Part shown: piece after piece, positions 7,054-54,617 of the stretch
How the letters are laid out: each line of letters begins with the position of its first letter
How positions within the stretch are numbered: position 1 is the first letter of the stretch
Source of the DNA: a virus
Lineage: Duplodnaviria > Heunggongvirae > Uroviricota > Caudoviricetes
Strand: one strand, 5' to 3'
Length of the DNA: 64,000 bases
Virus record (IMG/VR): IMGVR_UViG_3300015615_000629
Span: 288,001-352,000 of that record
The notes under the pieces: model-generated
The model's database searches: none
What the model was told of the DNA's origin: nothing
Seen by the model: the letters and a program-made list of their open reading frames with translations, nothing else
Position numbers and translations under genes: made by a program

Positions 7054-7695
7054 ATGGCACCAACTACATATAAATTTGAATGTTGCAACTGCGGTAAAAA
7101 ATGTGAGAGAGAACTTCGTTCACATCCTAAATATAAGGGTGATCTATGGAAAGGTAGGCTTTTTTGTTCTTTGCAATGTTTGGGAAATTTTAACAACAAA
7201 ACCACAATAGAACCATGTGGGAATTGTGGAAAATTAGTTGAAAAAATACCAAAAGAAATAAAAGATTCTAAATCAGGAAAAGTGTTTTGTAGTAGGTCAT
7301 GCTCAGCGTCCTTTAATAATAAATTTAAACGTAAGACAAATCGTTCCAAGTGCGAGAAACTTTTATTTAATCTAATCTCTGAAAAGTTCCCAGACTTAGA
7401 AATATTGTCTAACGATAAAACAATGTTAAATGGCTTGGAAGCGGATATTGCTATTCCATCTTTAAGACTCGCAATAGAGTGGAATGGGCCGGTTCATTTC
7501 AAACCAATATATGGTGAAGAAAAATTACGTAGGATTCAGGAGATTGATAGAAACAAATTAGAAATAGCCTCTAGAAATGACATTAATTTGATTGTCATTC
7601 CAGACTATGTTTCCAAAAAATCTTTCGTGTTAGAAGTTTTCGAAAAAATAAAGAAAATTATCAACGACTTACGTAGCGGAACCGGCACGGTATGA
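7054..7695 (+). CDS. Putative homing endonuclease: Cys-rich Zn repeats plus Vsr/DUF559-like PD-(D/E)xK nuclease
   Basis: CxxC...FCSxxC repeats; LEADIAIPSLRLAIEWNG..H; antisense to and overlapping tRNA-Ser(CGA); paralog at 48977. Confidence 0.7.
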   Translation: MAPTTYKFECCNCGKKCERELRSHPKYKGDLWKGRLFCSLQCLGNFNNKTTIEPCGNCGKLVEKIPKEIKDSKSGKVFCSRSCSASFNNKFKRKTNRSKCEKLLFNLISEKFPDLEILSNDKTMLNGLEADIAIPSLRLAIEWNGPVHFKPIYGEEKLRRIQEIDRNKLEIASRNDINLIVIPDYVSKKSFVLEVFEKIKKIINDLRSGTGTV

Positions 7696-7759
7696 TCGTG
7701 CAACCCTTTCGGGCATCTGTTTTCGAGGCAGACTGCTATTCCAATTTCGCTTCGGTTCC
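7677..7759 (-). tRNA. tRNA-Ser(CGA)
   Basis: GGAACCG/CGGTTCC acceptor; loop CTCGAAA; long variable arm; atypical T-loop ATCATAC. Confidence 0.8.
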
Positions 7760-7765
7760 TTAGAG

Positions 7766-7847
7766 CGGATGCGGCGTGTGCCGACCACGCAACCCTTTCG
7801 GGCAGCCGGGTTCAAACCGGTGTCCTCGCCAACTTCGGATCGCATCC
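7766..7847 (-). tRNA. tRNA-Ser(TGA)
   Basis: GGATGCG/CGCATCC acceptor; loop TTTGAAC; long variable arm; atypical T-loop GTCGGCA. Confidence 0.8.
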
Positions 7848-7855
7848 ATTTACAG

Positions 7856-7940
7856 CGGAAGGTGTGGAAGTCGAATCCACAAGGGTTTTATCCTCGACTC
7901 TTTAGCAAAGAGTTCCCGTCGCCAATCGGGTTGACCTTCC
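7856..7940 (-). tRNA. tRNA-Ser(GCT)
   Basis: ACTCT-TTGCTAA-AGAGT anticodon arm; long variable arm; TTCGACT T-loop. Confidence 0.9.
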
Positions 7941-7950
7941 AAATTAAACG

Positions 7951-7975
7951 TAAGTCCTTACCATATAAGGACTTA
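7951..7975. repeat. Perfect 10-bp inverted repeat between Ser tRNAs
   Basis: TAAGTCCTTA-ccata-TAAGGACTTA. Confidence 0.7.
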
Positions 7976-7979
7976 AGAG

Positions 7980-8059
7980 CGGATACGGAGCGATTCGAAC
8001 GCTCAACCCTTTCGGGCGACCGCTTTCCAAGCGGTTTCCTCACCATTCGGATCGTATCC
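7980..8059 (-). tRNA. tRNA-Ser(GGA)
   Basis: ACCGC-TTGGAAA-GCGGT; long variable arm; TTCGAAT. Confidence 0.9.
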
Positions 8060-8071
8060 AGTTTGTTTCAC

Positions 8072-8662
8072 TCAAAATATAAAATTCTCAATTTCCAACA
8101 CGTAACAATCTTCTAATTCTGGTTTCTCCTTTTTGCACAGCAACATCTTATTTGTAAGTTTTTCATCGACAAATAATTTCCATCTTCCATGTATAATGCC
8201 ACTTTCTCGAATCTCTACCTCTGAACTATCAATCCATTCAAAGCCGGAGGTTGCCGTCTGGAATACCGCCGCAACCTCCGGACCAACAACAATCCAACCG
8301 TGGCCATATCCTAACTTGTAGACAACTTGCAAAAATAATGCTTCATATTTTTCCATAATAGTGTCGCCAAGAGCCTCATTAAAATTCCATCTCGAATATG
8401 CAAAAGTTTGCCAATCTCTAGGCCATGTGGGTCTATTACTGTAGGCTTCTTCACACCCATCAATTAAAGTTTGCACTTCTTCGTGAGTTTTGATAAAGTC
8501 CCGCCCCATCCAAAACTTATATCCTTCGCAATCCTTGTATGGAGTGAGATCCCATTCTACAGTCCATTCCGCTTTCAATTTATATTTTGGTTTTTCTTTC
8601 TGGAAGAAAGAACCAATAAACGGCAGTCCTGCCAAAGCCAAACTAAAGTCTCGTCTGTTCAT
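8072..8662 (-). CDS. Truncated T4-gp23-like capsid-domain protein with Tat-like N-terminus
   Basis: MNRRDFSLALAGL; KLKAEWT; GHGWIVVGPEVAAVFQTATSGF; G.I.GRWKLFVD resemble the gp23 C-terminal half. Confidence 0.5.
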   Translation of the reverse strand: MNRRDFSLALAGLPFIGSFFQKEKPKYKLKAEWTVEWDLTPYKDCEGYKFWMGRDFIKTHEEVQTLIDGCEEAYSNRPTWPRDWQTFAYSRWNFNEALGDTIMEKYEALFLQVVYKLGYGHGWIVVGPEVAAVFQTATSGFEWIDSSEVEIRESGIIHGRWKLFVDEKLTNKMLLCKKEKPELEDCYVLEIENFIF

Positions 8663-8663
8663 A

Positions 8664-9146
8664 TTAACCTTTCGGTAATTCGGTTGGTGAAACCTTTTGA
8701 TTTGTCAACTTCCCTTGAGCTATGTCAAATAACCATTGAGCCCATACTGCCCTTGGAATAATTCGTCCGCCTATCTCTTCTGTTGTGATCGGTAAGCCAT
8801 GTGCAATAGGAGATAAATGCCCATCAAACATCGACCACCAAAAGTGCGATATACTTTCATCAAATTTCTTAATTATGTTTTTTGAAGTATATTTAATGTC
8901 TCCCAAACAAACAAAACCCTCATTTACGTTAGGGAGATCAGGAAACTCAAAACTATCTTCGGTTTCAAACCAAACCGCTAAACTGACTGGTAAACCATCC
9001 GTGGGCACCCATAAAAAGAAATGTATCTTGGGGAAATCTATATAATATGAGCGATTCCAAACGTTTAGTAAAGTCCTCTTCCCTGCTGGTTGTGTTCTGT
9101 GATAAATATAAGTGTATTCACTAATTTTGTAACAATCTGTAGTCAT
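8664..9146 (-). CDS. Prok-E2_D-like paralog 6
   Basis: PAGKRTLL; YYIDFP; LPNVNEGFVCLG; FWWSMF. Confidence 0.65.
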   Translation of the reverse strand: MTTDCYKISEYTYIYHRTQPAGKRTLLNVWNRSYYIDFPKIHFFLWVPTDGLPVSLAVWFETEDSFEFPDLPNVNEGFVCLGDIKYTSKNIIKKFDESISHFWWSMFDGHLSPIAHGLPITTEEIGGRIIPRAVWAQWLFDIAQGKLTNQKVSPTELPKG

Positions 9147-9150
9147 TTAA

Positions 9151-10740: not shown

Positions 10741-10757
10741 TGTGGTATCGGCCCAAA

Positions 10758-11896: not shown

Positions 11897-11902
11897 TTGG
11901 CC

Positions 11903-11930
11903 ATTATAGCACAGTCTGGACAGATGTAAA
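11903..11930 (-). promoter_or_regulatory. sigma70-type early promoter
   Basis: TTTACA-N16-TATAAT with TGTGC. Confidence 0.65.
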
Positions 11931-11931
11931 A

Positions 11932-12018
11932 TGAGAGTACACGGAATTGAACCGCTCGGCTATCCACCCGACTTTTTAGAGCCTTGTGTTCTACAGACAC
12001 ACGTCGGGAAATACTCTC
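11932..12018 (-). tRNA. Atypical tRNA-Tyr(GTA) lacking a conventional D-arm
   Basis: GAGAGTA/TACTCTC+A73; TGTGT-CTGTAGA-ACACA; GCGG-TTCAATT-CCGT; D-region CCCGAC complementary to GTCGGG in an enlarged variable region. Confidence 0.7.
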
Positions 12019-12503: not shown

Positions 12504-12505
12504 AG

Positions 12506-12593
12506 TGACCGAGACAGGACTTGAACCTGCACGCCTTATTTATTCGGCACGGCGTTCTCATCGCCGCATGGCTGCCAATTACATCACTCGGTC
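12506..12593 (-). tRNA. tRNA-Leu(GAG)
   Basis: CGGCG-ATGAGAA-CGCCG; long variable arm; TTCAAGT. Confidence 0.85.
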
Positions 12594-13351
12594 TTATTTG
12601 CGGCTATTTTAGCCCAATAACCTCTAGGAGGTTTATTGATTCCTAAATTCTTTGCCCACTTAGCAATCGCATTATCACTCACGCCAAAATCTTTGGCAAT
12701 TTGCGTTGTTGGTTTTTCCCAAAGTAATTTTTCAAGTTCATCTTTGGTTGGGTGTGGAACTTTGTGTGGTTTCGGTCTTTTACGCCAATTGTTATCAATA
12801 GGATTGCCGGATTTTATTCTTTTATCTTTTCTTTTTGTTCTCGCTACACGATTAAACTCGCCAGTGTTCCCTGTTAATCCAGTTTGTCCTTTATTAAGTC
12901 CAAACGTAGATGTTTGACTATGGCAGTTTGGACACATAAATCTAAGATTTTCTTTTTTATTGTCTAAAAAATTTCCGTTGATATGATCAACATGCAATCT
13001 TATCTCTTTTCCTTGCCACATACCATTGCAACCACATTTTTCACACTTATACTCTCTCCCACTTTCAATTAGTGCTCGTCTAAGTCGAACACCATGTTCT
13101 CTTCTATACTGGGTTTTTCCTTCTACAAGAATTTTACTCCAATGTTGTTTTTTTGGAGACGTTTTTCCTCGACAATGACATTGACCTGTAAAATGAGATG
13201 AATCAATTTTAAGGTTTTTTATTTTATTTCTTATATTTGTATGGCTTCCTCCTCCAAATTTAATGCCTAATCTCCGCATTACCTCGGAGATGGACATAGA
13301 CTGTTTTACTGCTTCTTCAAGTTGTTCTTTTGTATATTTTGTGTAACTCAT
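12584..13351 (-). CDS. HNH homing endonuclease with flanking HTH domains
   Basis: CEKCG...LHVDHING...DN..ENLRFMCPNCHSQT; located between Leu tRNAs. Confidence 0.85.
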   Translation of the reverse strand: MSYTKYTKEQLEEAVKQSMSISEVMRRLGIKFGGGSHTNIRNKIKNLKIDSSHFTGQCHCRGKTSPKKQHWSKILVEGKTQYRREHGVRLRRALIESGREYKCEKCGCNGMWQGKEIRLHVDHINGNFLDNKKENLRFMCPNCHSQTSTFGLNKGQTGLTGNTGEFNRVARTKRKDKRIKSGNPIDNNWRKRPKPHKVPHPTKDELEKLLWEKPTTQIAKDFGVSDNAIAKWAKNLGINKPPRGYWAKIAANKTE

Positions 13352-13416
13352 ACCCTAAGAGAGTATGGCTTTACCAAATATAACTAAAAGATATCAAATT
13401 TTACGAAAATTTTAAG

Positions 13417-13490
13417 TAGCTCCGGCGAGATTCGAACTCGCAGCATCGAACGTTCTAAGCGTTCGTGGTCGTCCAGTTGCCTACAGAGCC
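13417..13490 (-). tRNA. tRNA-Leu(TAG), short variable arm
   Basis: GAACG-CTTAGAA-CGTTC; 74 nt. Confidence 0.85.
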
Positions 13491-13507
13491 AAATTGATAT
13501 TTTTAAG

Positions 13508-13581
13508 TAGCCCAGAACGGATTTGAACCGTTAGCATCGGATTTTTTGAAAATCCGTGGTCTTCCAGTTGCCTACTGGGCC
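13508..13581 (-). tRNA. tRNA-Leu(CAA), short variable arm
   Basis: GGATT-TTCAAAA-AATCC; 74 nt; paralog of the TAG copy. Confidence 0.85.
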
Positions 13582-13589
13582 ATTGAATC

Positions 13590-13611
13590 AAATTAAATTA
13601 TCAAAGAACAA
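13590..13611 (-). promoter_or_regulatory. boxA-like antitermination element, copy 1
   Basis: TTGTTCTTTGATAATTTAATTT; 21/22 identical to 53851-53872; resembles rrn boxA TGCTCTTTAACA. Confidence 0.65.
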
Positions 13612-13612
13612 A

Positions 13613-13687
13613 TAAGACGGGTGGGACTCGGACCCACAAACGAAGATTTTTAAAATCTTCCGCATTATCCAGTTAGCGTACCGTCTC
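13613..13687 (-). tRNA. tRNA-Leu(TAA), short variable arm
   Basis: AAGAT-TTTAAAA-ATCTT; T-loop TCCGAGT. Confidence 0.75.
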
Positions 13688-13691
13688 AAAG

Positions 13692-13764
13692 TGGTAAGGA
13701 TCGGAATCGAACCGATTTAGCGCCGTCTTCAGCGGCGTGCAATGACCACACCTGCTCCCTTACC
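13692..13764 (-). tRNA. tRNA-Phe(GAA)
   Basis: CGCCG-CTGAAGA-CGGCG; TTCGATT. Confidence 0.85.
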
Positions 13765-14028
13765 ATAAACTCTAAATATCGCTTGCTTTTCTATTTCTTT
13801 TATAGTCCCTTTCATGTCCTAACACGTATTCACCTTTCATTTTGGAATGAACGGCAAATACAGTCCAGCCATCGTCCCAACTGCCATCTTCTTGTTTTAT
13901 CTTTACTACATTTCCTTCAATGGCAAACTTTGAAGGAATCCACGAAACATCGCGTTGATAGCCGTTTTCAGTCGGCTTTCGTAATTCACATTGGTTATAG
14001 TAATCTGATTTATTCATAAAATTCCTAG

Positions 14029-14114
14029 TAGCCACAGCCGGACTTGAACCGGCAAGGGGTTTGCACCCCATCGGATTTTAAGTCCGATGCGTTTTCCAAT
14101 TTCGCCATGCGGCC
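14029..14114 (-). tRNA. tRNA-Leu(TAA), long variable arm
   Basis: TCGGA-CTTAAAA-TCCGA; canonical class II fold. Confidence 0.9.
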
Positions 14115-14117
14115 AAC

Positions 14118-14154
14118 AAAAAACCCTCAGTAACCACTTGGTTACTGAGGGTTT
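14118..14154 (-). terminator. Intrinsic terminator (attenuator 1) immediately 5' of tRNA array 1
   Basis: CCCTCAGTAACC-AAGT-GGTTACTGAGGG followed by TTTTTT; ends 3 nt before tRNA-Leu. Confidence 0.85.
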
Positions 14155-14180: not shown

Positions 14181-14246
14181 TCAGCCATCGTCGCTATAGA
14201 GCGACAAGGATAAAAATGACAGGCTTAGACTAAACATCGCGTTCAT
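14181..14246 (-). CDS. Leader peptide 1 (21 aa, MNAMFSLSLSFLSLSLYSDDG)
   Basis: Read directly: ATG AAC GCG ATG TTT AGT CTA AGC CTG TCA TTT TTA TCC TTG TCG CTC TAT AGC GAC GAT GGC TGA; lies between promoter and terminator. Confidence 0.8.
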   Translation of the reverse strand: MNAMFSLSLSFLSLSLYSDDG

Positions 14247-14297: not shown

Positions 14298-14325
14298 ATC
14301 TTAGCACAGGATTTTCGTTTGTCAA
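14298..14325 (-). promoter_or_regulatory. sigma70-type promoter for leader 1 and tRNA array 1
   Basis: TTGACA-N16-TAAGAT with TGTGC extended -10. Confidence 0.7.
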
Positions 14326-44043: not shown

Positions 44044-44071
44044 ATTGTAGCACATCTAGACCGTGTGACAA
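44044..44071 (-). promoter_or_regulatory. sigma70-type early promoter
   Basis: TTGTCA-N16-TACAAT with TGTGC. Confidence 0.6.
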
Positions 44072-44141
44072 GCCCGCAGCCAGAATCGAACTGGCATCAG
44101 GAAGGTACGAACTTCCCATTCTACCATTAAACTATACGGGC
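44071..44141 (-). tRNA. tRNA-Thr(CGT)
   Basis: GGAAG-TTCGTAC-CTTCC; TTCGATT. Confidence 0.85.
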
Positions 44142-44851: not shown

Positions 44852-46021
44852 TTAAACCATTTCATACTGCAATTGACGATCAACCATTCGCAGAACCTTC
44901 TTTGTAACGTCTACTGGCTGCTCTGTCAATCGTAATCCCGCCACCAATTCATCCGATATGCCACTATATTCACTACTTCTGGCTTCCTTAACAAATCTCA
45001 TGTCCCTTATCGGATAAATATTGTTCAACCTAGTCGAGGTCAATATGCCATTTGTAAACATGTTCATATGTTCATTAGTTACAACATTATAAAATGTGGT
45101 TTTTTCATGCACAATTTTCTTGTTTACTATCTTTACTTTGCCATTTCTTGTATATGTTGTAGTTCCAATAGGTGAACTCATCATATTAGTAAACATACCC
45201 TTTTCAATATTGAAAATACTATGACCCTTGCCATCGTCAATAGTTCCCAACGACGAACCGTCACTAAATTTAACCAAAGCATAAGAAAGTCTAGTAAATG
45301 GCTTCATAATCCAAATTGGTTTGGCTTTATCAAGTCTGGCAGTGTCAAAGTTCCAAACAAGTAAGGTATCTGAATAATCTACATTTTCAATATTCTTATA
45401 GCCATTTGGTAACGAAACCCTAGTGCCAGCCATTAAGCACAACCACGGATTTGGATCGGATTGAATTGCATTTCCATAAACCGTTCCATCTGCATTTATG
45501 GCATAGGCGGCAACCCATACAGGATTTGCCCCATCGGTTAAAGTAATGCCGTCTAAAGTAAAGGGAAGAGTAAGGGAGTCTTCATAGGAACCAGTAAACG
45601 GCGTAAACGCCATTGTCGATACATGATCACTTGTTGTCGGACTGTCCGTATTGGCAGCATAAACAAAACCATATTCTATTACGCTATCACCGCCATTGCC
45701 AATGGTTGCGGTCATATGTATATTAAGATTTTCGACTTCTAAAGAGTCTGTAGTGATTTCAAGTGTTGCAGCCGTTGCAGGAGCCGTATATAACTCCCAT
45801 TCTGGAGCCTGCCCCGCTTCCACCAGACGCTTTAAATTGACAGCTTCCTGGTCGTAAAGAGTGACAATATCTCCATGCTTTCGAACGATAGATGGAGAAC
45901 CACCCAATAAACCTATTGAGGTAAAGGTAGATTTAGCCTGAGCAGCAATCTCGGCTTCCGCTGGAGATAAAAGATGACCTTCTGTGTCCTTGAGATTAAT
46001 CCTAAATGTTAGTGAATACAT
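44852..46021 (-). CDS. FN3/Ig-like protein with C-terminal Hint domain
   Basis: GG..V.EYGFVY...AYAIN..GT.YG (FN3-like); CLMAGTRV...K.IE.V...D; YNVVT..H.N.F.NGILT. Confidence 0.7.
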   Translation of the reverse strand: MYSLTFRINLKDTEGHLLSPAEAEIAAQAKSTFTSIGLLGGSPSIVRKHGDIVTLYDQEAVNLKRLVEAGQAPEWELYTAPATAATLEITTDSLEVENLNIHMTATIGNGGDSVIEYGFVYAANTDSPTTSDHVSTMAFTPFTGSYEDSLTLPFTLDGITLTDGANPVWVAAYAINADGTVYGNAIQSDPNPWLCLMAGTRVSLPNGYKNIENVDYSDTLLVWNFDTARLDKAKPIWIMKPFTRLSYALVKFSDGSSLGTIDDGKGHSIFNIEKGMFTNMMSSPIGTTTYTRNGKVKIVNKKIVHEKTTFYNVVTNEHMNMFTNGILTSTRLNNIYPIRDMRFVKEARSSEYSGISDELVAGLRLTEQPVDVTKKVLRMVDRQLQYEMV

Positions 46022-46557
46022 TTAGATATATAGGTCAATCTTGACAATTTCCTAATTTACCAACAATTTTACCGCAATATGGGCATGGCCAACTTTCTAC
46101 CATTTTAACCATATCATCGTATGAAACACTAGTGCCCGACTTCCACTCCCTAGTATCGGTTTTCCCAATAACCCTTAAATGCCAAATTATAGTCTCATGC
46201 TTGGTAACATTTGACGAAATAACCGCATCGTAGCCAAGATTTTTACATGTTTCTAACAGATTATATACAATATTCTTGTTTTCATCTGACAAAAGGATAT
46301 CGCACGGAAACTGCTTTTGCTTGGCAAGGTATTCGGGAAGTTTTTCTAAGAACGTCATAAAACGAGTATGACAAATTTGGGTGAAAAGATCAAATCCAAT
46401 TGGAGTCGATTACGTCATCTATGGATTTTGGTTTTCTATCTCTTTTTTCTTGAACATGTTCGCAAAATATGAACACAAAACCCATTAGACTAAAAAATAC
46501 GCCAAGAAATACGATAGCTCCAACAACACAATCTAAAATTGACATTTGTTTGCCTTT

Positions 46558-47169
46558 TTATTCTATCACTTCCGCATCCCCTACACCAGGAATTTCCAAA
46601 ATATCCGAATATTTTAAAATATCAGAAACCCTTAGTTTTCTAGCGTCAGAACGATATCTGGAATATTTAGAATATTTAATAAGGACAATAGGGGTCTTGC
46701 TAACAACTATATCAATGTAAAATGTTTGATTTTGTCCTATAGTAGATACCCTGAAAAGAGAACCAAATTCAGGTGAACTCAATAACCAAGGTGTCTTCAT
46801 TATAGTAATCTCATTCGGTATCGCCTTTCTTACAACTAACTTAGTTCCTTTCTTGACCATTCTTCTATTGTTTTTTGCTTCCATCCAAATAGAAAAGTAA
46901 TACATCTTATCAGGGCTCAAAAAATATCCATGAACCATGTCTTCTTCAATAACGATATCATCAGGACATGTAATTACCATTCCAGATTTAATTGCATCTA
47001 TCGCAAAAGCATCCTCGTTATCGAATACAACATGCTTTTCAGTTGGTTCTTTCGCTGGTTCGACTTTGCTAATTAAGATGTTTTCTGTGAAAACAGGGGA
47101 TTTTTCTGCGGTTTTGAACAAAACCAAGAATATACAGAAAATTCCAAGAAGGATTGCGGCGGCTTTCAT
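46558..47169 (-). CDS. Exported/membrane-anchored protein, paralog of 27232
   Basis: Shared HGY and VKK.TKL motifs. Confidence 0.65.
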   Translation of the reverse strand: MKAAAILLGIFCIFLVLFKTAEKSPVFTENILISKVEPAKEPTEKHVVFDNEDAFAIDAIKSGMVITCPDDIVIEEDMVHGYFLSPDKMYYFSIWMEAKNNRRMVKKGTKLVVRKAIPNEITIMKTPWLLSSPEFGSLFRVSTIGQNQTFYIDIVVSKTPIVLIKYSKYSRYRSDARKLRVSDILKYSDILEIPGVGDAEVIE

Positions 47170-47490
47170 ATCTTTATTTACGGTCGAAAAGCATTATTAT
47201 AATTAGGATTTTCTAAAGGATACCAGCGAATTTGACTGTCATTGTCCTTTTTAAGTTCGTCTAGACTTTTTTGCAATTCTAATATCTTTTTGTTTAGCTC
47301 TGCAATTTCCTTGTTAAGAGCCTCTTCTTTGCTTTTGTCGGGTTTGGGCTGGGTTTGTTGGATGCATGGCGGTTCAATCTTGTTGGGTTCTTCGGACTTA
47401 TCTCGAAAAAAGAAAAGTGCTACAAAGAACACGACAGTTGCAAAAATAACCAAATACTCTTTCTTCATAGGAGTATTTAGGGTTATTAAG

Positions 47491-47574
47491 TTCGAGAGGC
47501 ACGAATCGAACGTGCGTAGGGTTTCCCCAGACTTGGTTCAAAGCCAAGCTGCCATACCAACATAGCACTCCGGA
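47491..47574 (-). tRNA. tRNA-Gln(TTG) with long variable arm
   Basis: CTTGG-CTTTGAA-CCAAG; GGG-GAAA-CCC variable hairpin; TTCGATT. Confidence 0.7.
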
Positions 47575-47578
47575 TCAA

Positions 47579-47652
47579 GGTGGCTGACGGGAATCGGACC
47601 CGCGTAAAACCTCATTCACAGTGAGGCACCTGAACCAACACAGGACAGCCAC
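47579..47652 (-). tRNA. tRNA-His(GTG)
   Basis: CCTCA-CTGTGAA-TGAGG; T-loop TCCGATT. Confidence 0.75.
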
Positions 47653-47654
47653 AG

Positions 47655-47725
47655 CGATGACGACGGGAATCGGACCCGCGTTACAACTTAGACAGAGTTG
47701 CGTGTTACCATTACACTACGTCACC
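47655..47725 (-). tRNA. tRNA-Asp(GTC)
   Basis: CAACT-CTGTCTA-AGTTG; G73. Confidence 0.85.
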
Positions 47726-47913
47726 GTATTTCTTATTCCTTGTCACTGAAAACGTATTGACCGTTCTCTTCTGTTAACATAAACTTCTTTTTATCAAATC
47801 TTTCTTCCGGCAAATCTCCCATTACTCCCGAATGACCATGCACTACATATTCGTCTTCTGTTTCGGATAATGTTCTTAGATTTGAAAATACATGTGCCAT
47901 ATCTGATCCTCGT

Positions 47914-48678
47914 TTATTGATATACTTGTTTTAGATTTACGCTATAGCAATCTTCTGAATCCGAGTATTTCCAAGTTACATTTCCTTCCAAATCTTTTTT
48001 GACTATGGCGTATCTATCTCCTATTAATCCAGACAGCATTTCATTCGAAATTTGGGAAAGCAATAATCTTTGAAAGTGATCCTTTATGGCCCTTTCTGCA
48101 TTTATAACATCGCGATACATGAATTGATCATCAATTACGTCAAATAAATCACAAATTTTAGAAAGTGTTTGCTTAACAATATCCATATTAAAAGTACCAA
48201 AAGAAAGAAGTTTATTATCTATTTGGTCCTTAAATTCCCTTATACTCATACTTCCGTTTACTTTACAAAACATCTCTTGTATTTCATCTATAATTTTTTT
48301 GCACTTCTCAACTTCTATATCGCTTAAATTAGATATTTCTACTAACTTCTTAAAGGTATCGCAATTAGTACCTGCAATTCTTACTACAAGGCGAACAAGT
48401 TCCCGCAGGCTCATTTGATACCATTCTATTGTAACAACAGTTCGAGGAACATCTGGACATTTTGTATGCATGTCCTTAAATGCTTCAATGTTTTTACATT
48501 TGTAAATGGCATCACAAAAGGTATTTCTTATTCTTCCCAAAAGAAAGTCCCTAATGTCTTGTTTTGTATAATGCCGATGCGACCCAACCATAGTGAAATT
48601 TAGAGTACCATTATCTGTCAAATTCCGCACGGTTCCAGGTGTTACGCCAAGTATTTTTGCAACTTCTTTAGTCTTCAT
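47914..48678 (-). CDS. MerR/excisionase-type HTH protein
   Basis: MKTKEVAKILGVT..TVR...G.HR.Y. Confidence 0.7.
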   Translation of the reverse strand: MKTKEVAKILGVTPGTVRNLTDNGTLNFTMVGSHRHYTKQDIRDFLLGRIRNTFCDAIYKCKNIEAFKDMHTKCPDVPRTVVTIEWYQMSLRELVRLVVRIAGTNCDTFKKLVEISNLSDIEVEKCKKIIDEIQEMFCKVNGSMSIREFKDQIDNKLLSFGTFNMDIVKQTLSKICDLFDVIDDQFMYRDVINAERAIKDHFQRLLLSQISNEMLSGLIGDRYAIVKKDLEGNVTWKYSDSEDCYSVNLKQVYQ

Positions 48679-48786
48679 ATCTTTATATAGTTAAATTTTA
48701 TATGAAACAGCACAAAAAGAAGAATTTGTTTTGGTGCTTCCGTTCTTTTCTATCTGCAAGGCTTCTATATATTAGCAGCCCCACGA

Positions 48787-48837
48787 CCCGTGACAAGGAC
48801 CGGTAGCCCAAACGGCAGCCTTGTCACGGGTTTTTTT
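48787..48837 (+). terminator. Plus-strand hairpin with T7 tail; possibly the end of a small RNA
   Basis: CCCGTGACAAGG...CCTTGTCACGGG-TTTTTTT, just downstream of a TATATA motif. Confidence 0.6.
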
Positions 48838-48839
48838 AG

Positions 48840-48911
48840 CTCCGGTGCCTGGGTACGATCCAGGAACAGTTGAGTAACAATCAACCGTGATACCAGTTTC
48901 ACCACACCGGA
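48840..48911 (-). tRNA. tRNA-Asn(GTT), copy 2
   Basis: GTTGA-TTGTTAC-TCAAC; atypical T-loop ATCGTAC; G73. Confidence 0.8.
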
Positions 48912-48976
48912 ATAGTTTTATTTAAACTTTTTCAACAGGAGTCGAAATTATTCGAGTCCAGTTACTATATAAGAGT

Positions 48977-49594
48977 ATGCCTTATGTAGCAACGTGTACT
49001 TGTTGTGGCATAGAATTTACTAGGCCAACAAGATGTCATCCTAAACATCATCCAAAATGGAAAGGAAAACATTTTTGTAGTGTTAAGTGTCGCCACTTGT
49101 CCCAAGTTACCTCTATCACTCAGCCATGCGGCTGGTGTAATAAATCGGTAACAAGAAACCTAGCAGAAGCAAAAGGTTCTGCTTCTGGCCTTTTATTTTG
49201 CAATAATTCTTGTTCAGCATCTTACAGCAATACCAAACGTAGAAAATCCAGACGTTCCAAATGTGAGGTAATGCTGTTTGATTTATTGAGCAAAGAATTT
49301 CCAAATGTTACAATGTTGCCAAATGATAAAACCATGTTAGACGGGCTAGAAGTGGACATTGCAATTCCGGATATCCAACTCGCTATTGAATGGAACGGAA
49401 TAGTTCATTTCAAACCAATTTATGGTCAGTCGAAACTTGATCGTATCCAAAATATAGACAAACAAAAACTTGAAATTGCTGAAAACAAGGATATAAATCT
49501 AATTGTAATTCCCGACCTAGTTTCCAAGGACGAATACGTAAAGGAAGCATTCCACAAAATAAGTTCAATCATACGTGAGTTGTTAAAAAACTAA
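48977..49594 (+). CDS. Putative homing endonuclease (Zn repeats + Vsr/DUF559-like), paralog of 7054
   Basis: LEVDIAIPDIQLAIEWNGIVHFKPIYG; flanked by two tRNA-Asn genes. Confidence 0.7.
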   Translation: MPYVATCTCCGIEFTRPTRCHPKHHPKWKGKHFCSVKCRHLSQVTSITQPCGWCNKSVTRNLAEAKGSASGLLFCNNSCSASYSNTKRRKSRRSKCEVMLFDLLSKEFPNVTMLPNDKTMLDGLEVDIAIPDIQLAIEWNGIVHFKPIYGQSKLDRIQNIDKQKLEIAENKDINLIVIPDLVSKDEYVKEAFHKISSIIRELLKN

Positions 49595-49595
49595 G

Positions 49596-49669
49596 AGGGC
49601 AAGGCCGGAATCGAACCGATGCGACATTTTTGTTAACAGCAAAATGCTCTACCACTGAGCTACTCGCCC
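49596..49669 (-). tRNA. tRNA-Asn(GTT), copy 1
   Basis: TTTTG-CTGTTAA-CAAAA; TTCGATT. Confidence 0.8.
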
Positions 49670-50196
49670 TTAAATTTTATCCATTCCTCGACAACATCCT
49701 TGTAAAGTTTCTTTCTCCCCTCTCTTTTATTTTTTACAAATTTAAGCAAGTCTTTGAAAAGAGATAAACTTTTCTCCCAATTTCCCTTTTTATACTCGAT
49801 TGCTTCTAAAATGAAGAAATTAATTGGTTTCGCATCGTAGTATTTCAGCCAGTCTGAGTCGTTCCCTGTAGACTTTTCTAAAAGCCATCTTACAGATTCT
49901 GCAAAATCTTCTCCTATATCACCTTCACAATTACCGCTGGCTCGACTAACCTCGTGTACGCCATGCCCCAGTTCATGAAAGATTGCATTAAATTCACAAT
50001 CATTATAAACAACTACATCCCCATACTTTTCATTTATACCTATCCATAACGCACTGCCTTCGGCAGTGTCCAATGTAAAATTTCTTATTTCTTTAAAAGG
50101 GATATCATTTACTGTGAAAAAATTATAGGCATACCTTATTTTATTTTCAAAATGTGCCACCACTCTTACTTCGCTCATGGCAAGCGTTGCTCGCAT
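49660..50196 (-). CDS. Possible zincin metallopeptidase
   Basis: HELGH...EDFAES. Confidence 0.55.
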   Translation of the reverse strand: MRATLAMSEVRVVAHFENKIRYAYNFFTVNDIPFKEIRNFTLDTAEGSALWIGINEKYGDVVVYNDCEFNAIFHELGHGVHEVSRASGNCEGDIGEDFAESVRWLLEKSTGNDSDWLKYYDAKPINFFILEAIEYKKGNWEKSLSLFKDLLKFVKNKREGRKKLYKDVVEEWIKFKGE

Positions 50197-50403
50197 CCCT
50201 TGTTTCCTCCAAAATATTCGTCTAAATATTCAATTTCTTTGGCCAGTGCTAGTGCCTTTGCTTCGGCCACTAATTTCTCCATTTCGGCAATTTCTTCGGG
50301 AGTATATCGCCTTTCTCGATCTTCTTTCAAATATTGATTAAAAGCATCGATATCCGCTTGCGTCGAAGTTGGACCTAAATGCATAATTTCATCCTTATTC
50401 AAG

Positions 50404-50474
50404 TGACCCCGGTGGTGCTTGCAACCACATCGTCCTGGTTAAGAGCCAAGAGCTTTTCGTTAAGCTACGGAGTC
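50404..50474 (-). tRNA. tRNA-Lys(CTT)
   Basis: CTTGG-CTCTTAA-CCAGG; atypical T-loop TGCAAGC. Confidence 0.75.
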
Positions 50475-50478
50475 AAAG

Positions 50479-50552
50479 GGCCGACGACTGGGTTCGCACC
50501 AGCATAAACTTGTTTACAAAACAAGCGCCTTACTAAATCGAGCCACGTCGGC
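50479..50552 (-). tRNA. tRNA-Thr(TGT)
   Basis: CTTGT-TTTGTAA-ACAAG; T-loop TGCGAAC. Confidence 0.8.
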
Positions 50553-50659
50553 AATTTTCTTATATTTTGCCCCGCCTTCACCCAGCGAGGCAGAACGGCC
50601 AATTTTGTATACAGGATCGTTAGTCCAGAGGCCGTAGGTTGTCGCCCTTTCGATGGCGT

Positions 50660-50920
50660 TTATTCGTTGTCTTTCCTACGTTGGAAATCTTCTATTATTT
50701 CAGATAACAAAGGCAAACGTCTAAAAGACGACAAACGCTTAAATTCTGTAATTTCATGTGGGCCAATAAACTCTTTCTCAGCCTCTAGCCAAAATTGCAA
50801 ATCTAAGTTCTGTGGGCACCCAGCATCAAGCCATTTGAAATAAGCAGACTTAGAAATTAATTCTTTTTTATAATACGAAATATTTTCATCTGCAATGCTC
50901 ATCGGGTGGAGGTTACTCAT
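50660..50920 (-). CDS. DUF2934-like small protein
   Basis: I...AY.KW..AG.P...D..FWLEAE.E. Confidence 0.65.
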   Translation of the reverse strand: MSNLHPMSIADENISYYKKELISKSAYFKWLDAGCPQNLDLQFWLEAEKEFIGPHEITEFKRLSSFRRLPLLSEIIEDFQRRKDNE

Positions 50921-51230
50921 ATCTTGTTTTAATGTCGCCTAGATAGGTTGTGCCGTGTTCTTTGTAAACTTTGTATATAGAGTAATATTCTTCACCCCGA
51001 TACATTAATTCATCAATCAAATACTGTTTATCTTCTGGTAGGACGACATGTGGTATGTGAGCATAGCCTACAGTGCCATGTTGTCCGCAATTACACTTCC
51101 AATGCCATCCTAATGGATTACTATAATTAACCATTCCGGATAGTTTAAGTTCTTTATTGCCGCAAGATTTACAGGTTTGTTCGTCTAAGAAATCTTGCAT
51201 TGCTTGACGTTCAGGGTCTTCATTCATAAG

Positions 51231-51304
51231 CACGGATGTAGGAAATCGAATCCTAAAAGCGAGAGTTTTGGAGGCTCTCCGTCGTACCCACCGACTGCAT
51301 CCGT
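51231..51304 (-). tRNA. tRNA-Trp(CCA)
   Basis: Loop CTCCAAA; ACGGATG/CATCCGT; G73. Confidence 0.75.
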
Positions 51305-51308
51305 AAAG

Positions 51309-51377
51309 TATCCCGTAAAAGAGTCGAACTTTTCATCCGAGTTTCGTAAACTCAGTGCCAATTCCGTTGGACGGGAC
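51309..51377 (-). tRNA. tRNA-Arg(ACG), compact atypical D-arm
   Basis: TGAGT-TTACGAA-ACTCG; 69 nt. Confidence 0.7.
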
Positions 51378-51393
51378 AAATTTTATAAGCCTT

Positions 51394-52029
51394 TTAGACT
51401 GGAAGCGTCCTTACTATGTCTTCTGCAAAATAGTCATCTCTTAATACTGTCAGAACTTCGCCTAGCCAGTTTGTGCCTTTCCAAGGCTTGCCATTTTTGG
51501 CGTCTTTGGCATCGATTCCGATTCCCCATATTGTATCATATGGAGATGCTTCAACTAACATTGTTCCGGCAGTTTTCCGCAACACTTCCAACATATCTGG
51601 ATTTTGAGTAAATTTGTAATAATTGCCTGTGAAAACTATGCTTCGTGCATTTGCATCCCATCTTCCCTTATCGAAGCCTTTTACCGTTCTGCCAAGTGCT
51701 TTTTGTTCACGTGGCGATTTGGCTTCCATTATCTTTTTGAATGTATCTTTATCTCCGAAGAACAGGGCTTTTTGAGCCATCATATACTGTTCGGCGGTGT
51801 TATAGGTAATTTTGTTTACTGTAAATTTGGAATGACTCCATTGGGAGAAAGGGGCTTCGTTCCAAAAGTAAGTAAATTCAGTGTACTTTTTCATTGTTTT
51901 TGGTTTCCGTGTAATTTCGTAGGAACCATCTGGTAAAATTTTATATTCAAGGTCATAAAATGATGGTTTTGCCGAAATATATTCGGATTCAATGTTTAGT
52001 TCGATTTCTTTATCCATAAGTGCGACCAC
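51394..52029 (-). CDS. NADAR (YbiA/DarG1-like) family hydrolase
   Basis: FSQW; TAEQYMMAQKA..FGD; KF.QN; LVEASPYD.IWGIG; G.N.LG. Confidence 0.9.
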   Translation of the reverse strand: MVALMDKEIELNIESEYISAKPSFYDLEYKILPDGSYEITRKPKTMKKYTEFTYFWNEAPFSQWSHSKFTVNKITYNTAEQYMMAQKALFFGDKDTFKKIMEAKSPREQKALGRTVKGFDKGRWDANARSIVFTGNYYKFTQNPDMLEVLRKTAGTMLVEASPYDTIWGIGIDAKDAKNGKPWKGTNWLGEVLTVLRDDYFAEDIVRTLPV

Positions 52030-52094
52030 TGAGAATTGAACTCAGTCTATTTGCTTGGGAAGCAAGTGTGCGAAGCCGTTAACACTTTGGTCGC
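52021..52094 (-). tRNA. tRNA-Gly(CCC)
   Basis: TTGC-TTCCCAA-GCAA; GCGACCA/TGGTCGC. Confidence 0.8.
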
Positions 52095-52098
52095 GGAG

Positions 52099-52169
52099 AG
52101 CGGGTAGGGAGAATCGAACTCCCATAACCAGTTTGGAAAACTGGAGCTTTACCATTAAGCAATACCCGC
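52099..52169 (-). tRNA. tRNA-Gly(TCC)
   Basis: CCAGT-TTTCCAA-ACTGG; U73. Confidence 0.9.
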
Positions 52170-52702
52170 TTAGTCTAGATATTTTTAAAGTAATGCGAAA
52201 ATTTCGGTAATAATTGATTCAAGGATTGAATATCGTTTTGTTTAAATGCTCCTTCAGCGTCTTTTACAAGATTTCTCCAATATAAAGCATTGTATAACTC
52301 GGTAGGAACATAAAGAAATCCTTGTGTGTCTTCTTTAACTGGTGTATTGGGACCGCCATCTTTTATATTTCCTGCTGGTTTTACACCAACCGCAAATCGC
52401 AACATAATAGATTTGTTTCTTTTTTCATAATCCACATATTTTAACCAACCGTCTTTTAATGGCCCATTAAGTTCTTGAATTAGTCTTTTTTTGACTGTTT
52501 CTACCATATTTTTATATGTAGTCATTTCTTCGGGGGAGATATTTTCGAATCTACCATTTGCTCGCATGGGATGTTTCCCATCTGCTCCAAGAGTATTCCA
52601 ACGACTGTGCAATCCTCGTAAGATATTTCTCTGCGTAGAGTAATCGAATTGTTCCTGTTCTAACAGGTAATCAATGAATGTTTTCATACGTTATATACCC
52701 GC

Positions 52703-52921
52703 TTAATCATAGAATCCAAGTTCTTGTGCCTCGGATACTAATTGATTTAATATTTCAAATGATCTTTTACGATTTTCTTTTTTAAAGTTCATTAACTCGT
52801 CTGAGTCAACTTGCACTTTCAACAAACCTTTTCCCACAATTTCCTTTAAGAAATATTCGTGGGAAACATTCATTAATTCTGCGGCTTGGTCAGTTGTAAG
52901 TTGTTGTGTCATTGGAATCAC
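52703..52921 (-). CDS. Excisionase-like HTH, resembling antitoxins of PIN-associated TA pairs
   Basis: LTT.QAAEL.NVS..Y; C-terminal L..L..EAQELG.Y; wing apparently deleted. Confidence 0.6.
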   Translation of the reverse strand: MIPMTQQLTTDQAAELMNVSHEYFLKEIVGKGLLKVQVDSDELMNFKKENRKRSFEILNQLVSEAQELGFYD

Positions 52922-52936
52922 GTTTCGTTGTGTAAG

Positions 52937-53010
52937 TATCCCCGGCTGGATTCAAACCAGCAACCTGCGGATTAGAAGTCCGCTGCTCTATTCAGTTGAG
53001 CTACGAGGAC
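52937..53010 (-). tRNA. tRNA-Arg(TCT)
   Basis: GCGGA-CTTCTAA-TCCGC. Confidence 0.9.
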
Positions 53011-53014
53011 ATAG

Positions 53015-53087
53015 TAGCCGGTATCCGAGTCGAGCGGATTCTTCATCGTTCGAAGCGATGCGTGCTAGTCCCTCACACTCACCGGCC
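53015..53087 (-). tRNA. tRNA-Arg(TCG)
   Basis: CATCG-CTTCGAA-CGATG; T-loop CTCGACT. Confidence 0.75.
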
Positions 53088-53092
53088 AAAGT

Positions 53093-53584
53093 TTAACTAA
53101 CCATTGCTTCTTTCCAATATTGGAGATTATTTTCGCTTATTTCTCCGTTGCAGTATTTTGCCAAGTCCAGAAGAGCATTATAGAACAAACTGGCTTCTTC
53201 TGCAAACCCTAATATGGTAAGGCATTTCAATACACGTGTGATTCGTAAGTAATTATGGTCGCCTGAGAATACCCAACTGCTATTTTTTCGTAGTTTGACT
53301 AATTTGCCATTGTAGGCAACTGCAAATCCCCAAAATTTGAGCATTCGGTAGAATGCTTCTAGCATCTTTTCTCTTAATGCTGGATCGCTTTTAAATAATT
53401 GTATTTGTTCGGCGTCGAGTAAGGGTGCATCTGGGTTGAAGTTACTTGGTTCTGTAAGTGGAAACAGCCATTGGATATAACTATGGTCTGCTTCAAGTCG
53501 GTGGTCTTTGGAGGCTATAATTTCATCAATTTTATAGCCTTCATCGTTACCGATTTTACTACGGTAAAATTCTACTGCTTGCAT
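53093..53584 (-). CDS. OGFr_N (opioid growth factor receptor N-terminal-like) protein
   Basis: LE..H.YIQWLFP..E.S..NP.AP.L; HN.LRITR.LK.L. Confidence 0.85.
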   Translation of the reverse strand: MQAVEFYRSKIGNDEGYKIDEIIASKDHRLEADHSYIQWLFPLTEPSNFNPDAPLLDAEQIQLFKSDPALREKMLEAFYRMLKFWGFAVAYNGKLVKLRKNSSWVFSGDHNYLRITRVLKCLTILGFAEEASLFYNALLDLAKYCNGEISENNLQYWKEAMVS

Positions 53585-53602
53585 TTTTAATCCTTATTTA
53601 AA

Positions 53603-53673
53603 TCGACCGCATAGGAGTCGAACCTATGTTTACTACTCATCAGATAGTCGTCCTACCGTTGAACGAGCGGTCG
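53603..53673 (-). tRNA. tRNA-Ile(GAT)
   Basis: ACTAT-CTGATGA-GTAGT (unusual G37); TTCGACT. Confidence 0.75.
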
Positions 53674-53689
53674 GGTTATTATAACGGAG

Positions 53690-53760
53690 TAGGCCGCCTG
53701 AGAATCGAACTCAGATCTAAAAATTAAAAGTTTTTTATTCTCCCATTGAACTAGCGACCC
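53690..53760 (-). tRNA. tRNA-Lys(TTT)
   Basis: AAAAA-CTTTTAA-TTTTT (all A-U anticodon stem). Confidence 0.8.
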
Positions 53761-53764
53761 AAAA

Positions 53765-53843
53765 AGGCATCGTGCCGGATCGAACGGCTTGGAATCATCT
53801 TTGCAGGATGACGGGCCGCCACGACCCATTAACCTACGATGCC
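53765..53843 (-). tRNA. tRNA-Cys(GCA) with enlarged D-region
   Basis: TCATC-CTGCAAA-GATGA; U73. Confidence 0.75.
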
Positions 53844-53850
53844 ATTGGCT

Positions 53851-53872
53851 AAATTAAATTGTCAAAGAACAA
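53851..53872 (-). promoter_or_regulatory. boxA-like antitermination element, copy 2
   Basis: TTGTTCTTTGACAATTTAATTT, right after the first tRNA of array 2. Confidence 0.65.
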
Positions 53873-53873
53873 G

Positions 53874-53945
53874 GGCCTTCGGTGAGAATCGAACTCACTA
53901 CCGCTTCCTTACCAAGGAAGAACTCTACCGATGAGCTACGAAGGC
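53874..53945 (-). tRNA. tRNA-Thr(GGT)
   Basis: CTTCC-TTGGTAA-GGAAG. Confidence 0.9.
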
Positions 53946-53963
53946 AAATCACTTTTCCAAACG

Positions 53964-53996
53964 AAAAAACCCGCTTCAGGTTTGAACCTGAGCGGG
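53964..53996 (-). terminator. Intrinsic terminator (attenuator 2) 5' of tRNA array 2
   Basis: CCCGCTCAGGT-TCAA-ACCTGAAGCGGG-TTTTTT; ends 18 nt before tRNA-Thr. Confidence 0.85.
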
Positions 53997-54052
53997 CTTT
54001 AAGTGATTCAGCCGACCCAGGTTTTATCCTGAGCCGTGTCTTGTTGACTGGT

Positions 54053-54142
54053 TCAGGACGAGATGATGGTGCATCCTTGGCGCGTATTAATATCGCACCA
54101 ATTATGCTGTTTATCTCGTCTTGTACCAATCATGAGTGACAT
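54053..54142 (-). CDS. Leader peptide 2 (29 aa, MSLMIGTRRDKQHNWCDINTRQGCTIISS)
   Basis: ATG TCA CTC ATG ATT GGT ACA AGA CGA GAT AAA CAG CAT AAT TGG TGC GAT ATT AAT ACG CGC CAA GGA TGC ACC ATC ATC TCG TCC TGA. Confidence 0.8.
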   Translation of the reverse strand: MSLMIGTRRDKQHNWCDINTRQGCTIISS

Positions 54143-54175
54143 TTTAGTTTCTTCTACTTTCGTTCTAACTGTAAG

Positions 54176-54247
54176 TGGCGGGAGAAGGAATCGCACCTCC
54201 GACCTTGAGTTTATGAGACTCACGAGCTACTACTGCTCCACCCCGCT
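54176..54247 (-). tRNA. tRNA-Met(CAT), initiator-like
   Basis: TGAGT-CTCATAA-ACTCA; A1:C72 mismatch; fMet-like D-arm; lacks the three G-C anticodon-stem pairs. Confidence 0.75.
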
Positions 54248-54256
54248 ATTGTGTAT

Positions 54257-54331
54257 TGGTGGCAGGGGAGGGCCTTGCACCCCCAACCTTCGGGTTTAAC
54301 CCCGACGCTCTATTTTTTGAGCTACCCCACC
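54257..54331 (-). ncRNA. tRNA-like RNA with 6-nt anticodon loop and encoded CCA
   Basis: GGTGGGG/CCCTGCC-ACCA; TCGGG-GTTAAA-CCCGA. Confidence 0.65.
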
Positions 54332-54338
54332 AATTAAG

Positions 54339-54420
54339 CGGCCAGGGATGGTAACGAGCCACCGACCTCCGCTACTTGCCATTGCTGACTTTCGCGGTGC
54401 TCTCACTGAGCTACCTAGCC
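54339..54420 (-). ncRNA. tRNA-like RNA with expanded, hairpin-containing anticodon arm
   Basis: GGCTAGG/CCTGGCC; GCTC/GAGC D-stem; CCGC-[GAAA GTCA GCAA TGGC AAGTA]-GCGG; T-arm GGTGG/CCATC. Confidence 0.6.
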
Positions 54421-54589
54421 ATGTTCTTCTATATAGAAGATTCAAATCATTTTTTCTTCACGCACTTAGTAAAACCTCCTTTTGGTCAGAGTTACTAATT
54501 GCGGCCGGAATTGAGCTATTCCTTTCGGACTTACTCAAGGATTACCGGCCCTTGTGCTGTTTCGCTCTTTTCTTGCCGTCAACTCCCCT

Positions 54590-54617
54590 ACTATAGCGTG
54601 ATTTTTTGGGTTGTCAA
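54590..54617 (-). promoter_or_regulatory. sigma70-type promoter for tRNA-like RNAs, leader 2 and array 2
   Basis: TTGACA-N16-TATAGT. Confidence 0.7.

Follow-up and report, generated by a model that had tools for sequence, protein, structure and literature searches.

Organization of the tRNA Arrays

We analyzed a 64,000-nucleotide window (bases 288,001–352,000) of a complete virus record of 572,167 bp with terminal repeats (IMGVR_UViG_3300015615_000629, Caudoviricetes), in which two arrays of tRNA genes each follow a short open reading frame (ORF), here called a leader, and an intrinsic terminator. All tRNA genes in the window are on the minus strand, as are the other window features given below, and the arrays are therefore read from high to low coordinates. 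Isotype sets were taken from ARAGORN at default settings. Relaxed thresholds and Rfam added further tRNA calls, on which the anticodon-coverage figures depend in part and of which the isotype sets are independent. An original prediction, made from the letters of the window, had described both arrays as sharing one layout of promoter, short ORF, terminator, and tRNA genes with a boxA-like element near the start, and had read these cassettes as attenuators that sample codons. The layout was recovered at both arrays, except that the promoter of array 2 does not stand beside its ORF.

Cassette 1 begins at a promoter-like site at 14325..14298 (TTGACA, 16 nt, TAAGAT, with TG upstream), an extended motif that also heads cassettes 2 and 3 and the phage transfer-messenger RNA (tmRNA) gene. 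Leader ORF 1 (14246..14181; 21 codons plus stop) holds only Phe, Ser, and Leu codons and a single Tyr codon from codon 5 to codon 18, with five codon types each for Leu and Ser. Intrinsic terminator 1 (14151..14115) combines a 12-bp hairpin (14151..14124, −21.6 kcal/mol) with a T-tract (14123..14115) that directly adjoins the tRNA-Leu gene starting at 14114. The proximal part of array 1 (14114..12505) contains tRNA-Leu(taa), Phe(gaa), Leu(taa), Leu(caa), and Leu(tag), an HNH endonuclease gene (12584-13351), and Leu(gag). The distal part (8059..7676) contains Ser(gga) at 8059..7979, Ser(gct) at 7940..7855, and a doubtful Ser(cga) at 7759..7676, among which only Ser(gga) passed the default thresholds; the default isotypes of the array are thus Leu (five genes), Phe, and Ser. 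In an 87-nt Tyr-like element (12018..11932), the acceptor and T arms are intact and the anticodon loop carries GUA, but there is no normal D-arm. We regard it as an atypical, putative tRNA, and Tyr is the weak point of the match between leader 1 and its array; the canonical tRNA-Tyr lies at genome position 558,543, 256 kb away, without a leader. Five tandem ORFs of 160–212 aa occupy 8664-11896, between the Tyr-like element and the Ser tRNAs; four of them share sequence motifs, and none of the five has a Pfam match.

The promoter-like site of cassette 2 (54617..54590; TTGACA, 16 nt, TATAGT; 11 of 12 matches) is the top promoter match of its region. It is separated from leader ORF 2 by roughly 170 nt of leader sequence, by a pair of atypical tRNA-like elements (54420..54338 and 54331..54257), and by a tRNA-Met of initiator-like type (54247..54175). 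The 1:72 pair of this tRNA-Met is mismatched (A1xC72), as in bacterial initiator tRNAs, whereas the acceptor stem of the tRNA-Met in a third array, described below, is fully paired. The tRNA-Met and both tRNA-like elements are 5′ of leader 2 and stand outside the control of terminator 2. The anticodon arm is expanded in one of the tRNA-like elements; the other, at 43.6 bits against the Rfam tRNA model, has a 6-nt anticodon loop. Both are kept in a relative, contig L007 (L007:4508-4680). The same 5′ leader contains, upstream of these ungated tRNAs, a 7-codon mini-ORF (54442-54465) with the strongest Shine-Dalgarno motif of the region, followed by a perfect palindromic hairpin.

Leader ORF 2 (54142..54053; 29 codons plus stop) contains, in codons 5–27, all 11 amino acids of array 2 and no others. 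It is followed by a hairpin, C:D (54036..54013), whose 3′ half can alternatively pair with the 5′ arm of the terminator (the D:E antiterminator), and by intrinsic terminator 2 (53996..53964), with a hairpin at 53996..53970 (−17.6 kcal/mol) and six T residues at 53969..53964. Leader 3 and L007 have terminators paralogous to this one. Array 2 spans 53945..44071 and reads Thr, Cys, Lys, Ile, Arg(tcg), Arg, Gly, Gly, and Arg(acg) in its first half and Trp, Thr, Lys, Asn, Asn, Asp, His, Gln, and Thr in its second; the tRNA-Thr at 53945 would be the first gated gene, and Arg(tcg) and Arg(acg) are atypical. Its default isotypes are Thr, Cys, Lys, Ile, Arg, Gly, Trp, Asn, Asp, His, and Gln, and the prediction that the amino-acid sets of the two arrays do not overlap was borne out. 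Protein genes are interspersed in array 2 (OGFr_N-like, NADAR, HTH_17, and others), and the NADAR-domain, OGFr_N-like, and HTH_17 genes are at 51394-52029, 53093-53584, and 47914-48678.

A motif scan placed a boxA-like 17-mer inside each array, at 13609..13593 in array 1 and at 53870..53854, after the first gated tRNA, in array 2. These were the only two matches in the window (0.12 expected), and the 17-mer recurs in all three arrays of the genome and in arrays of other phages. At rrn-type antitermination sites, the boxA consensus is bound by NusB/NusE. The likeness to the rrn-type boxA, known for rRNA operons and lambdoid nut sites, lies in the position of the motif near the start of long, mostly untranslated units, and an equivalent role here is read from the sequence. 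The 17-mer was also observed inside tRNA arrays of unrelated IMG/VR contigs (L097:5479-5654, L112, L076, L096, L134, and L136), in two contigs directly after Ala(tgc)-Ile(gat), the two tRNAs found in bacterial rRNA spacers. In L066 a variant of the motif comes after the terminator, and in L065 it is located immediately 5′ of a terminator.

A Third Cassette in the Genome

Ala, Val, Glu, and Pro tRNAs had been predicted to sit outside the window behind a third leader. A whole-genome tRNA scan located such an array at genome 116,577-113,841, 171 kb upstream, in the order Pro, Pro, Met, Glu, Ala, Val, Glu, Gly, Val, Pro, Ala, Glu, with Ala(tgc) added by the relaxed thresholds and Rfam. Directly upstream of it are the extended promoter motif, leader ORF 3 (genome 116761..116690, minus strand; 23 codons), a hairpin, and a terminator paralogous to that of cassette 2. 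Of the 22 residues after the start of leader 3, 19 are Ala, Val, Glu, Met, Gly, or Pro. The terminator hairpins of the three cassettes range from −16.8 to −21.6 kcal/mol and are followed by T-tracts. Between them, leaders 1 to 3 divide 19 amino acids (all except Tyr) among three putative regulons.

When the whole genome was scanned for a promoter combined with a short ORF and a strong terminator, leaders 1 and 3 and the tmRNA gene were the only hits; the promoter of leader 2 is beyond the search distance, and that leader therefore escaped the scan. The third locus returned was rejected as a leader on being recognized as the tmRNA gene (L163:162-520, genome ~182,061-182,419, minus strand, outside the window; Rfam RF00023, 68.7 bits, E = 1.3e-26). 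This gene, unreported by ARAGORN, has the promoter type of the tRNA cassettes, with a strong terminator at its 3′ end. A fourth cassette-type promoter, at genome 286,887, stands ahead of a tRNA(tca) and has no leader ORF, and no leaders were found at the isolated tRNA genes of the genome. Two minus-strand tRNAs outside the window have anticodons that would read stop codons, CTA (genome 30,802-30,894) and TCA (286,239-286,310), the latter being the one downstream of the fourth promoter. Within the window but outside the arrays, a 100-nt tRNA at 33586-33685 (Rfam, 57.7 bits), missed by ARAGORN at default settings, likewise has no leader. A 409-aa ORF (L001:64-1293, genome 108,063-109,292, minus strand), located about 4.5 kb past the final tRNA gene of array 3, joins an AAA_5 (MoxR-like) ATPase to L7/L12 C-terminal and RNA polymerase alpha C-terminal domains; its homologues elsewhere contain the ATPase part only.

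Correspondence Between Leaders and Arrays

The leader cores had been claimed to use only, and all of, the amino acids served by their own arrays. This held for Leu, Phe, and Ser and for all 11 amino acids of array 2, whereas Tyr is matched only by the atypical element in array 1. The match was quantified on whole ORFs with no core selected. The share of residues served by the own array was 13/20 for leader 1 (Leu/Phe/Ser; binomial P = 1.4e-5), 23/28 for leader 2 (P = 7e-4), and 19/22 for leader 3 (P = 1.5e-7), and each leader matched the other two arrays at 5–20% only. At the level of codons, with cognates assigned by standard wobble rules, 60%, 79%, and 86% of the codons in leaders 1, 2, and 3 were cognate to the own array, compared with 5–15% for the other arrays. 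Leader 1 sampled 8/8 distinct anticodons of its array, leader 2 15/17, and leader 3 10/11, for a total of 33/36.

All 2,843 ATG-started genomic ORFs of 18–40 codons served as the short-ORF background. For arrays 2 and 3, the codon match and anticodon coverage of the leader were reached by the leader itself only, and for array 1 one further ORF equalled leader 1 on both measures. Chance as the source of the leader–array match was rejected by this background and by the pairing permutations reported below, and the match is far beyond chance.

The leaders were also expected to use many different synonymous codons rather than repeats of one, and they do. Counted per leader, 58 of 70 codons were distinct, against 51.5 ± 2.4 expected when synonymous codons were redrawn from genome usage (P = 0.006). 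The 33 anticodons covered compare with 29.2 under the same redraw (P = 0.034), a modest excess, and the description of the leaders as codon sampling is justified. The residues that the arrays do not serve fall at codons 2–3 and at the last two or three codons.

RNA Switch Modelling

The stop codons of the three leaders lie 29, 56, and 71 nt before the 5′ arms of the terminators, and therefore only an RNA switch could couple translation to termination; steric coupling of the pyrBI type was rejected on these distances. For modelling, the RNA 3′ of the ribosome was folded with the A-site set at every codon in turn. This downstream-only folding was adopted because equilibrium folding with pairs spanning the ribosome was uninformative. 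The paired state of the terminator 5′ arm in truncated RNA gave no discrimination between the switch states. Controls comprised 60 dinucleotide shuffles for the terminator contrast and 300 shuffles for antiterminator stabilization.

Leader 3 behaved as a switch in the model. Its terminator probability was 0.00–0.02 with the A-site at codons 4–21, rose to 0.24–0.78 at the last two sense codons, and was 0.99 both at the stop codon and without a ribosome. The resulting contrast of 0.98 compares with 0.03 or less in the 60 shuffles, and the antiterminator stabilization was reached by 0/300 shuffles. The modelled structures are those of a his-type chain, in which the pairings A:B, C:D, and E:F would lead to termination and B:C and D:E to read-through. 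A stall anywhere in the ORF body gave the same outcome, as in the OR-gate of the original prediction. Stalls at codons 2–3 and at the final codons were inconsequential in the folding model, and the unserved residues noted above are thus outside the modelled sensing zone, an unplanned consistency check.

Leader 2 has a chain like that of leader 3, with a D:E antiterminator of −12.9 kcal/mol that 1/300 shuffles matched. In leader 1, a segment of the ORF pairs with a segment after the stop codon, and the candidate antiterminator amounts to −5.7 kcal/mol. Over all cassettes tested, including those of other phages described below, antiterminators were significant in 7/9, namely, leaders 2 and 3, L007, and four of the five distant cassettes.

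Cassettes in Other Phages

Comparison of cassettes 1 and 2 at the DNA level with 50,697 phage records returned generic tRNA matches only and no close relative; the sole long match, LR756511.1, was rejected as an isolated tRNA without a leader. Exact and flexible terminator patterns retrieved chance matches without tRNAs from viral and metagenome contigs, and no relatives were found of the proteins flanking leaders 1 and 3 or of a 1,109-aa neighbour. The OGFr_N-like gene in array 2 led to L007, a 25-kb Logan contig whose protein is 69% identical. L007 carries the whole array-2 cassette: promoter, tRNA trio, a 37-codon ORF, hairpin, terminator, and array. The order within the trio differs, with the tRNA-Met first and the two tRNA-like elements after it. 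The start context (ACAATG), the switch segments, and the terminator align with those of leader 2, but the ORF body does not; its amino-acid set is kept and the residue order changed, a pattern that points to selection on composition rather than on a peptide. All nine isotypes of the truncated L007 array are present in its leader (9/9), and 0/300 shuffles gave an antiterminator as strong.

More distant phages, reached via terminase at 23–26% identity, carry analogous cassettes with a different promoter type. At these loci the short ORF beside the terminator was chosen by eye from short lists, and a small selection bias is possible. The first leader of L063, a 140-kb record, holds all 15 isotypes of its array and is devoid of Ala, Asp, Glu, and Gly. 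The second leader of this record and its homologue in L066 centre on Ile, Leu, Gly, Asp, Ala, Glu, and Phe, and the cognate tRNAs lie downstream. The boxA-like motif led to an unrelated 98-kb contig, L076, with a Ser/Leu/Tyr-rich leader ahead of a Leu-Ser-Ser-Tyr-Leu-Leu block of tRNA genes (P = 4.6e-9). Four of the five antiterminators of the distant cassettes exceeded the shuffles, and in most distant cassettes the terminator probability was lower in the ORF body and 0.87–1.0 near the stop codon, a pattern that was not uniform.

When leaders and arrays were permuted over seven cassettes from four phage records (three cassettes from this genome and two from one distant phage), the true pairing ranked best of 5,040 permutations, and the own leader contained 54/55 array isotypes. 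The leader–array match thus stood out against shuffled pairings across genomes, a check that the original prediction had proposed. Homologues of the AAA_5 ORF in L068 and L069 were rejected as cassette carriers, having no tRNAs.

Discussion

Layout, codon match, alternative pairings, and recurrence in other phages were established by computation. From them we consider it likely that the cassettes are ribosome-mediated (leader-peptide) transcription attenuators regulating the phage's own tRNA genes. The attenuator reading is strongly supported for leader 3 and reasonably for leader 2; for leader 1 it is weakly supported, its sole grounds being layout and codon match.

In the following scheme we infer that the ORFs are translated and that stalling of the ribosome leads to read-through. 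A host-type promoter would start the transcript, and an ORF of 21–29 codons, the body of which consists of codons of the downstream tRNAs, would be translated at once. With all sampled aminoacyl-tRNAs plentiful, the ribosome would reach the stop codon and cover segment B, so that C:D and E:F form and transcription terminates before the array. With any sampled tRNA scarce, the ribosome would stall in the ORF, B:C and D:E would pair, and the polymerase would enter the array. Without translation, A:B, C:D, and E:F would form and termination would again follow. The boxA-like element inside each array probably makes read-through processive over 6–10 kb of tRNAs and small ORFs. The phage would thereby have three tRNA regulons, partitioned by amino acid and subject to negative feedback from the speed of decoding, and its initiator-like tRNA-Met would remain ungated.

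Among the closest known systems is the his attenuator (hisL, Salmonella/E. coli), which shares a translated leader between the promoter and the regulated genes, alternative hairpins (A:B, C:D, and E:F versus B:C and D:E) whose register is set by ribosome position, and termination both on full translation and on none. This architecture is seen in leaders 2 and 3 and in L007. However, hisL uses a single codon seven times over and governs enzymes of biosynthesis, whereas the leaders described here contain 3–11 amino acids in many synonymous codons ahead of phage tRNA genes. The multivalent leaders of ilvGMEDA (Ile/Leu/Val) and thr (Thr/Ile) likewise sense several amino acids, any stall giving read-through, but they cover two or three amino acids of one pathway rather than up to 11 isotypes at isoacceptor resolution, and only here would the product made be the molecule sensed. 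The three-segment layout of leader 1 (ORF segment, downstream segment, and terminator 5′ arm) resembles the trp attenuator (trpL), although its 2:3-type pairing is weak. In pheM-pheST and in T-box control of synthetases, a component of translation is governed by the charging or decoding of its cognate tRNA; the targets there are synthetase genes, whereas the genes regulated here would be tRNA genes and small phage ORFs, not genes of amino-acid biosynthesis or aminoacyl-tRNA synthetases.

Several observations weigh against the attenuator reading. The terminator of leader 1 was always favoured at equilibrium, and its antiterminator was equalled by 75/300 shuffles and is not significant. In leader 2 the terminator probability was 0.70–0.92 at all positions and the equilibrium contrast, at 0.04, was not significant; its two conformations differ little in energy, and the switch therefore rests on a kinetic argument, in which the earlier-transcribed partners would pair first. 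The proposed OR-gate over the tRNA pool thus emerged for leader 3 in silico and not for leaders 1 and 2, which gave no clear modelled switch. The leaders were expected to be conserved in relatives, as the array-2 cassette is in L007; a related contig, L070, reached via an AAA_5 homologue, has a tRNA array without a leader, and in L076 the matched ORF extends through its hairpin, a different geometry. Within the arrays, Arg(tcg) and Arg(acg) have unusual T-loops, the Ser(cga) and Tyr-like calls are atypical, and promoter-like sites (e.g., 11930..11903) could supply distal tRNAs independently. Leader 2 uses GGT, whose tRNA belongs to array 3, a single CGT (Arg) occurs in leader 3, and three array anticodons are unsampled by the leaders. 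Leaders 1 and 2 have no clear Shine-Dalgarno sequence, but only 28% of the long ORFs of the genome have one. Lastly, an attenuator sensor cannot separate tRNA loss from amino-acid starvation.

This last point leads to an unlikely alternative, in which the attenuator itself would be unchanged but would respond to amino-acid supply or translation status (charged tRNA in starvation or late infection), the roster of codons serving only to pick the block of tRNAs. Leader-peptide attenuators answer to aminoacyl-tRNA rather than to tRNA itself (PMC1183508), and the two signals are not separated by anything in the sequence. Extra tRNA, however, would not relieve starvation, so the feedback would be without purpose, and the match extends to the isoacceptor level (three Thr, three Arg, and three Pro codons to three anticodons each), which is needless for sensing amino acids.

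It is also improbable that the ORFs are translated and matched but cause no stall-induced antitermination, acting instead as Rho-shielding spacers or as a positive test of tRNA function ahead of constitutive, leaky terminators. The lack of a significant antiterminator in leader 1 would fit this, as would the ORF of L076, which by running through the hairpin would favour read-through on successful translation. Leader 3, in contrast, models as a full three-state switch with negative-feedback polarity, the antiterminators of seven of the nine cassettes are significant, and the distances from stop codon to terminator are too great for steric effects.

We give very little credence to the possibility that the leaders are untranslated structured RNAs (processing or pause signals before tRNA precursors) with incidental ORFs. 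The leader RNAs are highly structured and the Shine-Dalgarno sequences of leaders 1 and 2 are weak, but each of the three independent ORFs has a composition match at the level of about 1 in 2,843, the amino-acid set has been kept where nucleotides and residue order have changed, and the start context ACAATG is conserved. Moreover, a structure-only element would not foretell a third leader composed of the remaining amino acids. Direct sensing of tRNA as RNA is scarcely credible: T-box leaders also tie tRNA status to a choice between terminator and antiterminator, but no T-box or other Rfam family was detected in the leaders at gathering or permissive thresholds, and a single T-box reads one tRNA, not 3–11 isotypes.

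Leader-peptide attenuation is a textbook control for amino-acid operons, and the reason for the presence of tRNA genes in phages has been under debate for decades; to our knowledge, the regulation of these genes is essentially unknown. PMC10264068, PMC11464382, and PMC12409363 set out two main ideas, namely, that the genes compensate for codon usage and that they provide an escape from defences that cleave tRNAs, and report that phage tRNAs rescue infection from host tRNA-cleaving systems. As the original prediction had suggested, a literature search that included the huge-phage survey PMC7162821 and the phage-tRNA paper PMC10264068 found no account of tRNA genes, phage or cellular, under the control of a leader peptide or attenuator, a search that left subscription journals mostly uncovered and the absence unproven. 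The attenuation machinery assumed here is known; the tRNA-gene target, the codon roster as input, and the splitting of the repertoire into three regulons would be new.

More broadly, we advance as a tentative proposal, with slightly less than even confidence, that several large-phage clades carry a modular form of tRNA-pool surveillance. OR-gate roster leaders would sense the loss of isoacceptors and induce replacement tRNAs, with the initiator tRNA constitutive and boxA lending processivity. The loss itself may be caused by host anticodon nucleases or by the demand of phage codon usage. A link to host tRNA-cleaving defences is plausible because phage tRNAs rescue infection from such systems, and it is offered here purely as an inference.

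If the cassettes work as attenuators, the protein genes embedded in the arrays would be gated jointly with the tRNAs, and a single small ORF would constitute a natural OR-gate with many inputs. Leader-peptide attenuation would gain a new class of target, in which the sensed molecule is also the product. The phage would gauge decoding speed codon by codon and make tRNAs on demand, and the debate over phage tRNA genes would become testable by asking which perturbation opens which gate. The combination of roster ORF, terminator, and tRNAs would also provide a sequence signature for annotating regulons in uncultured giant phages.

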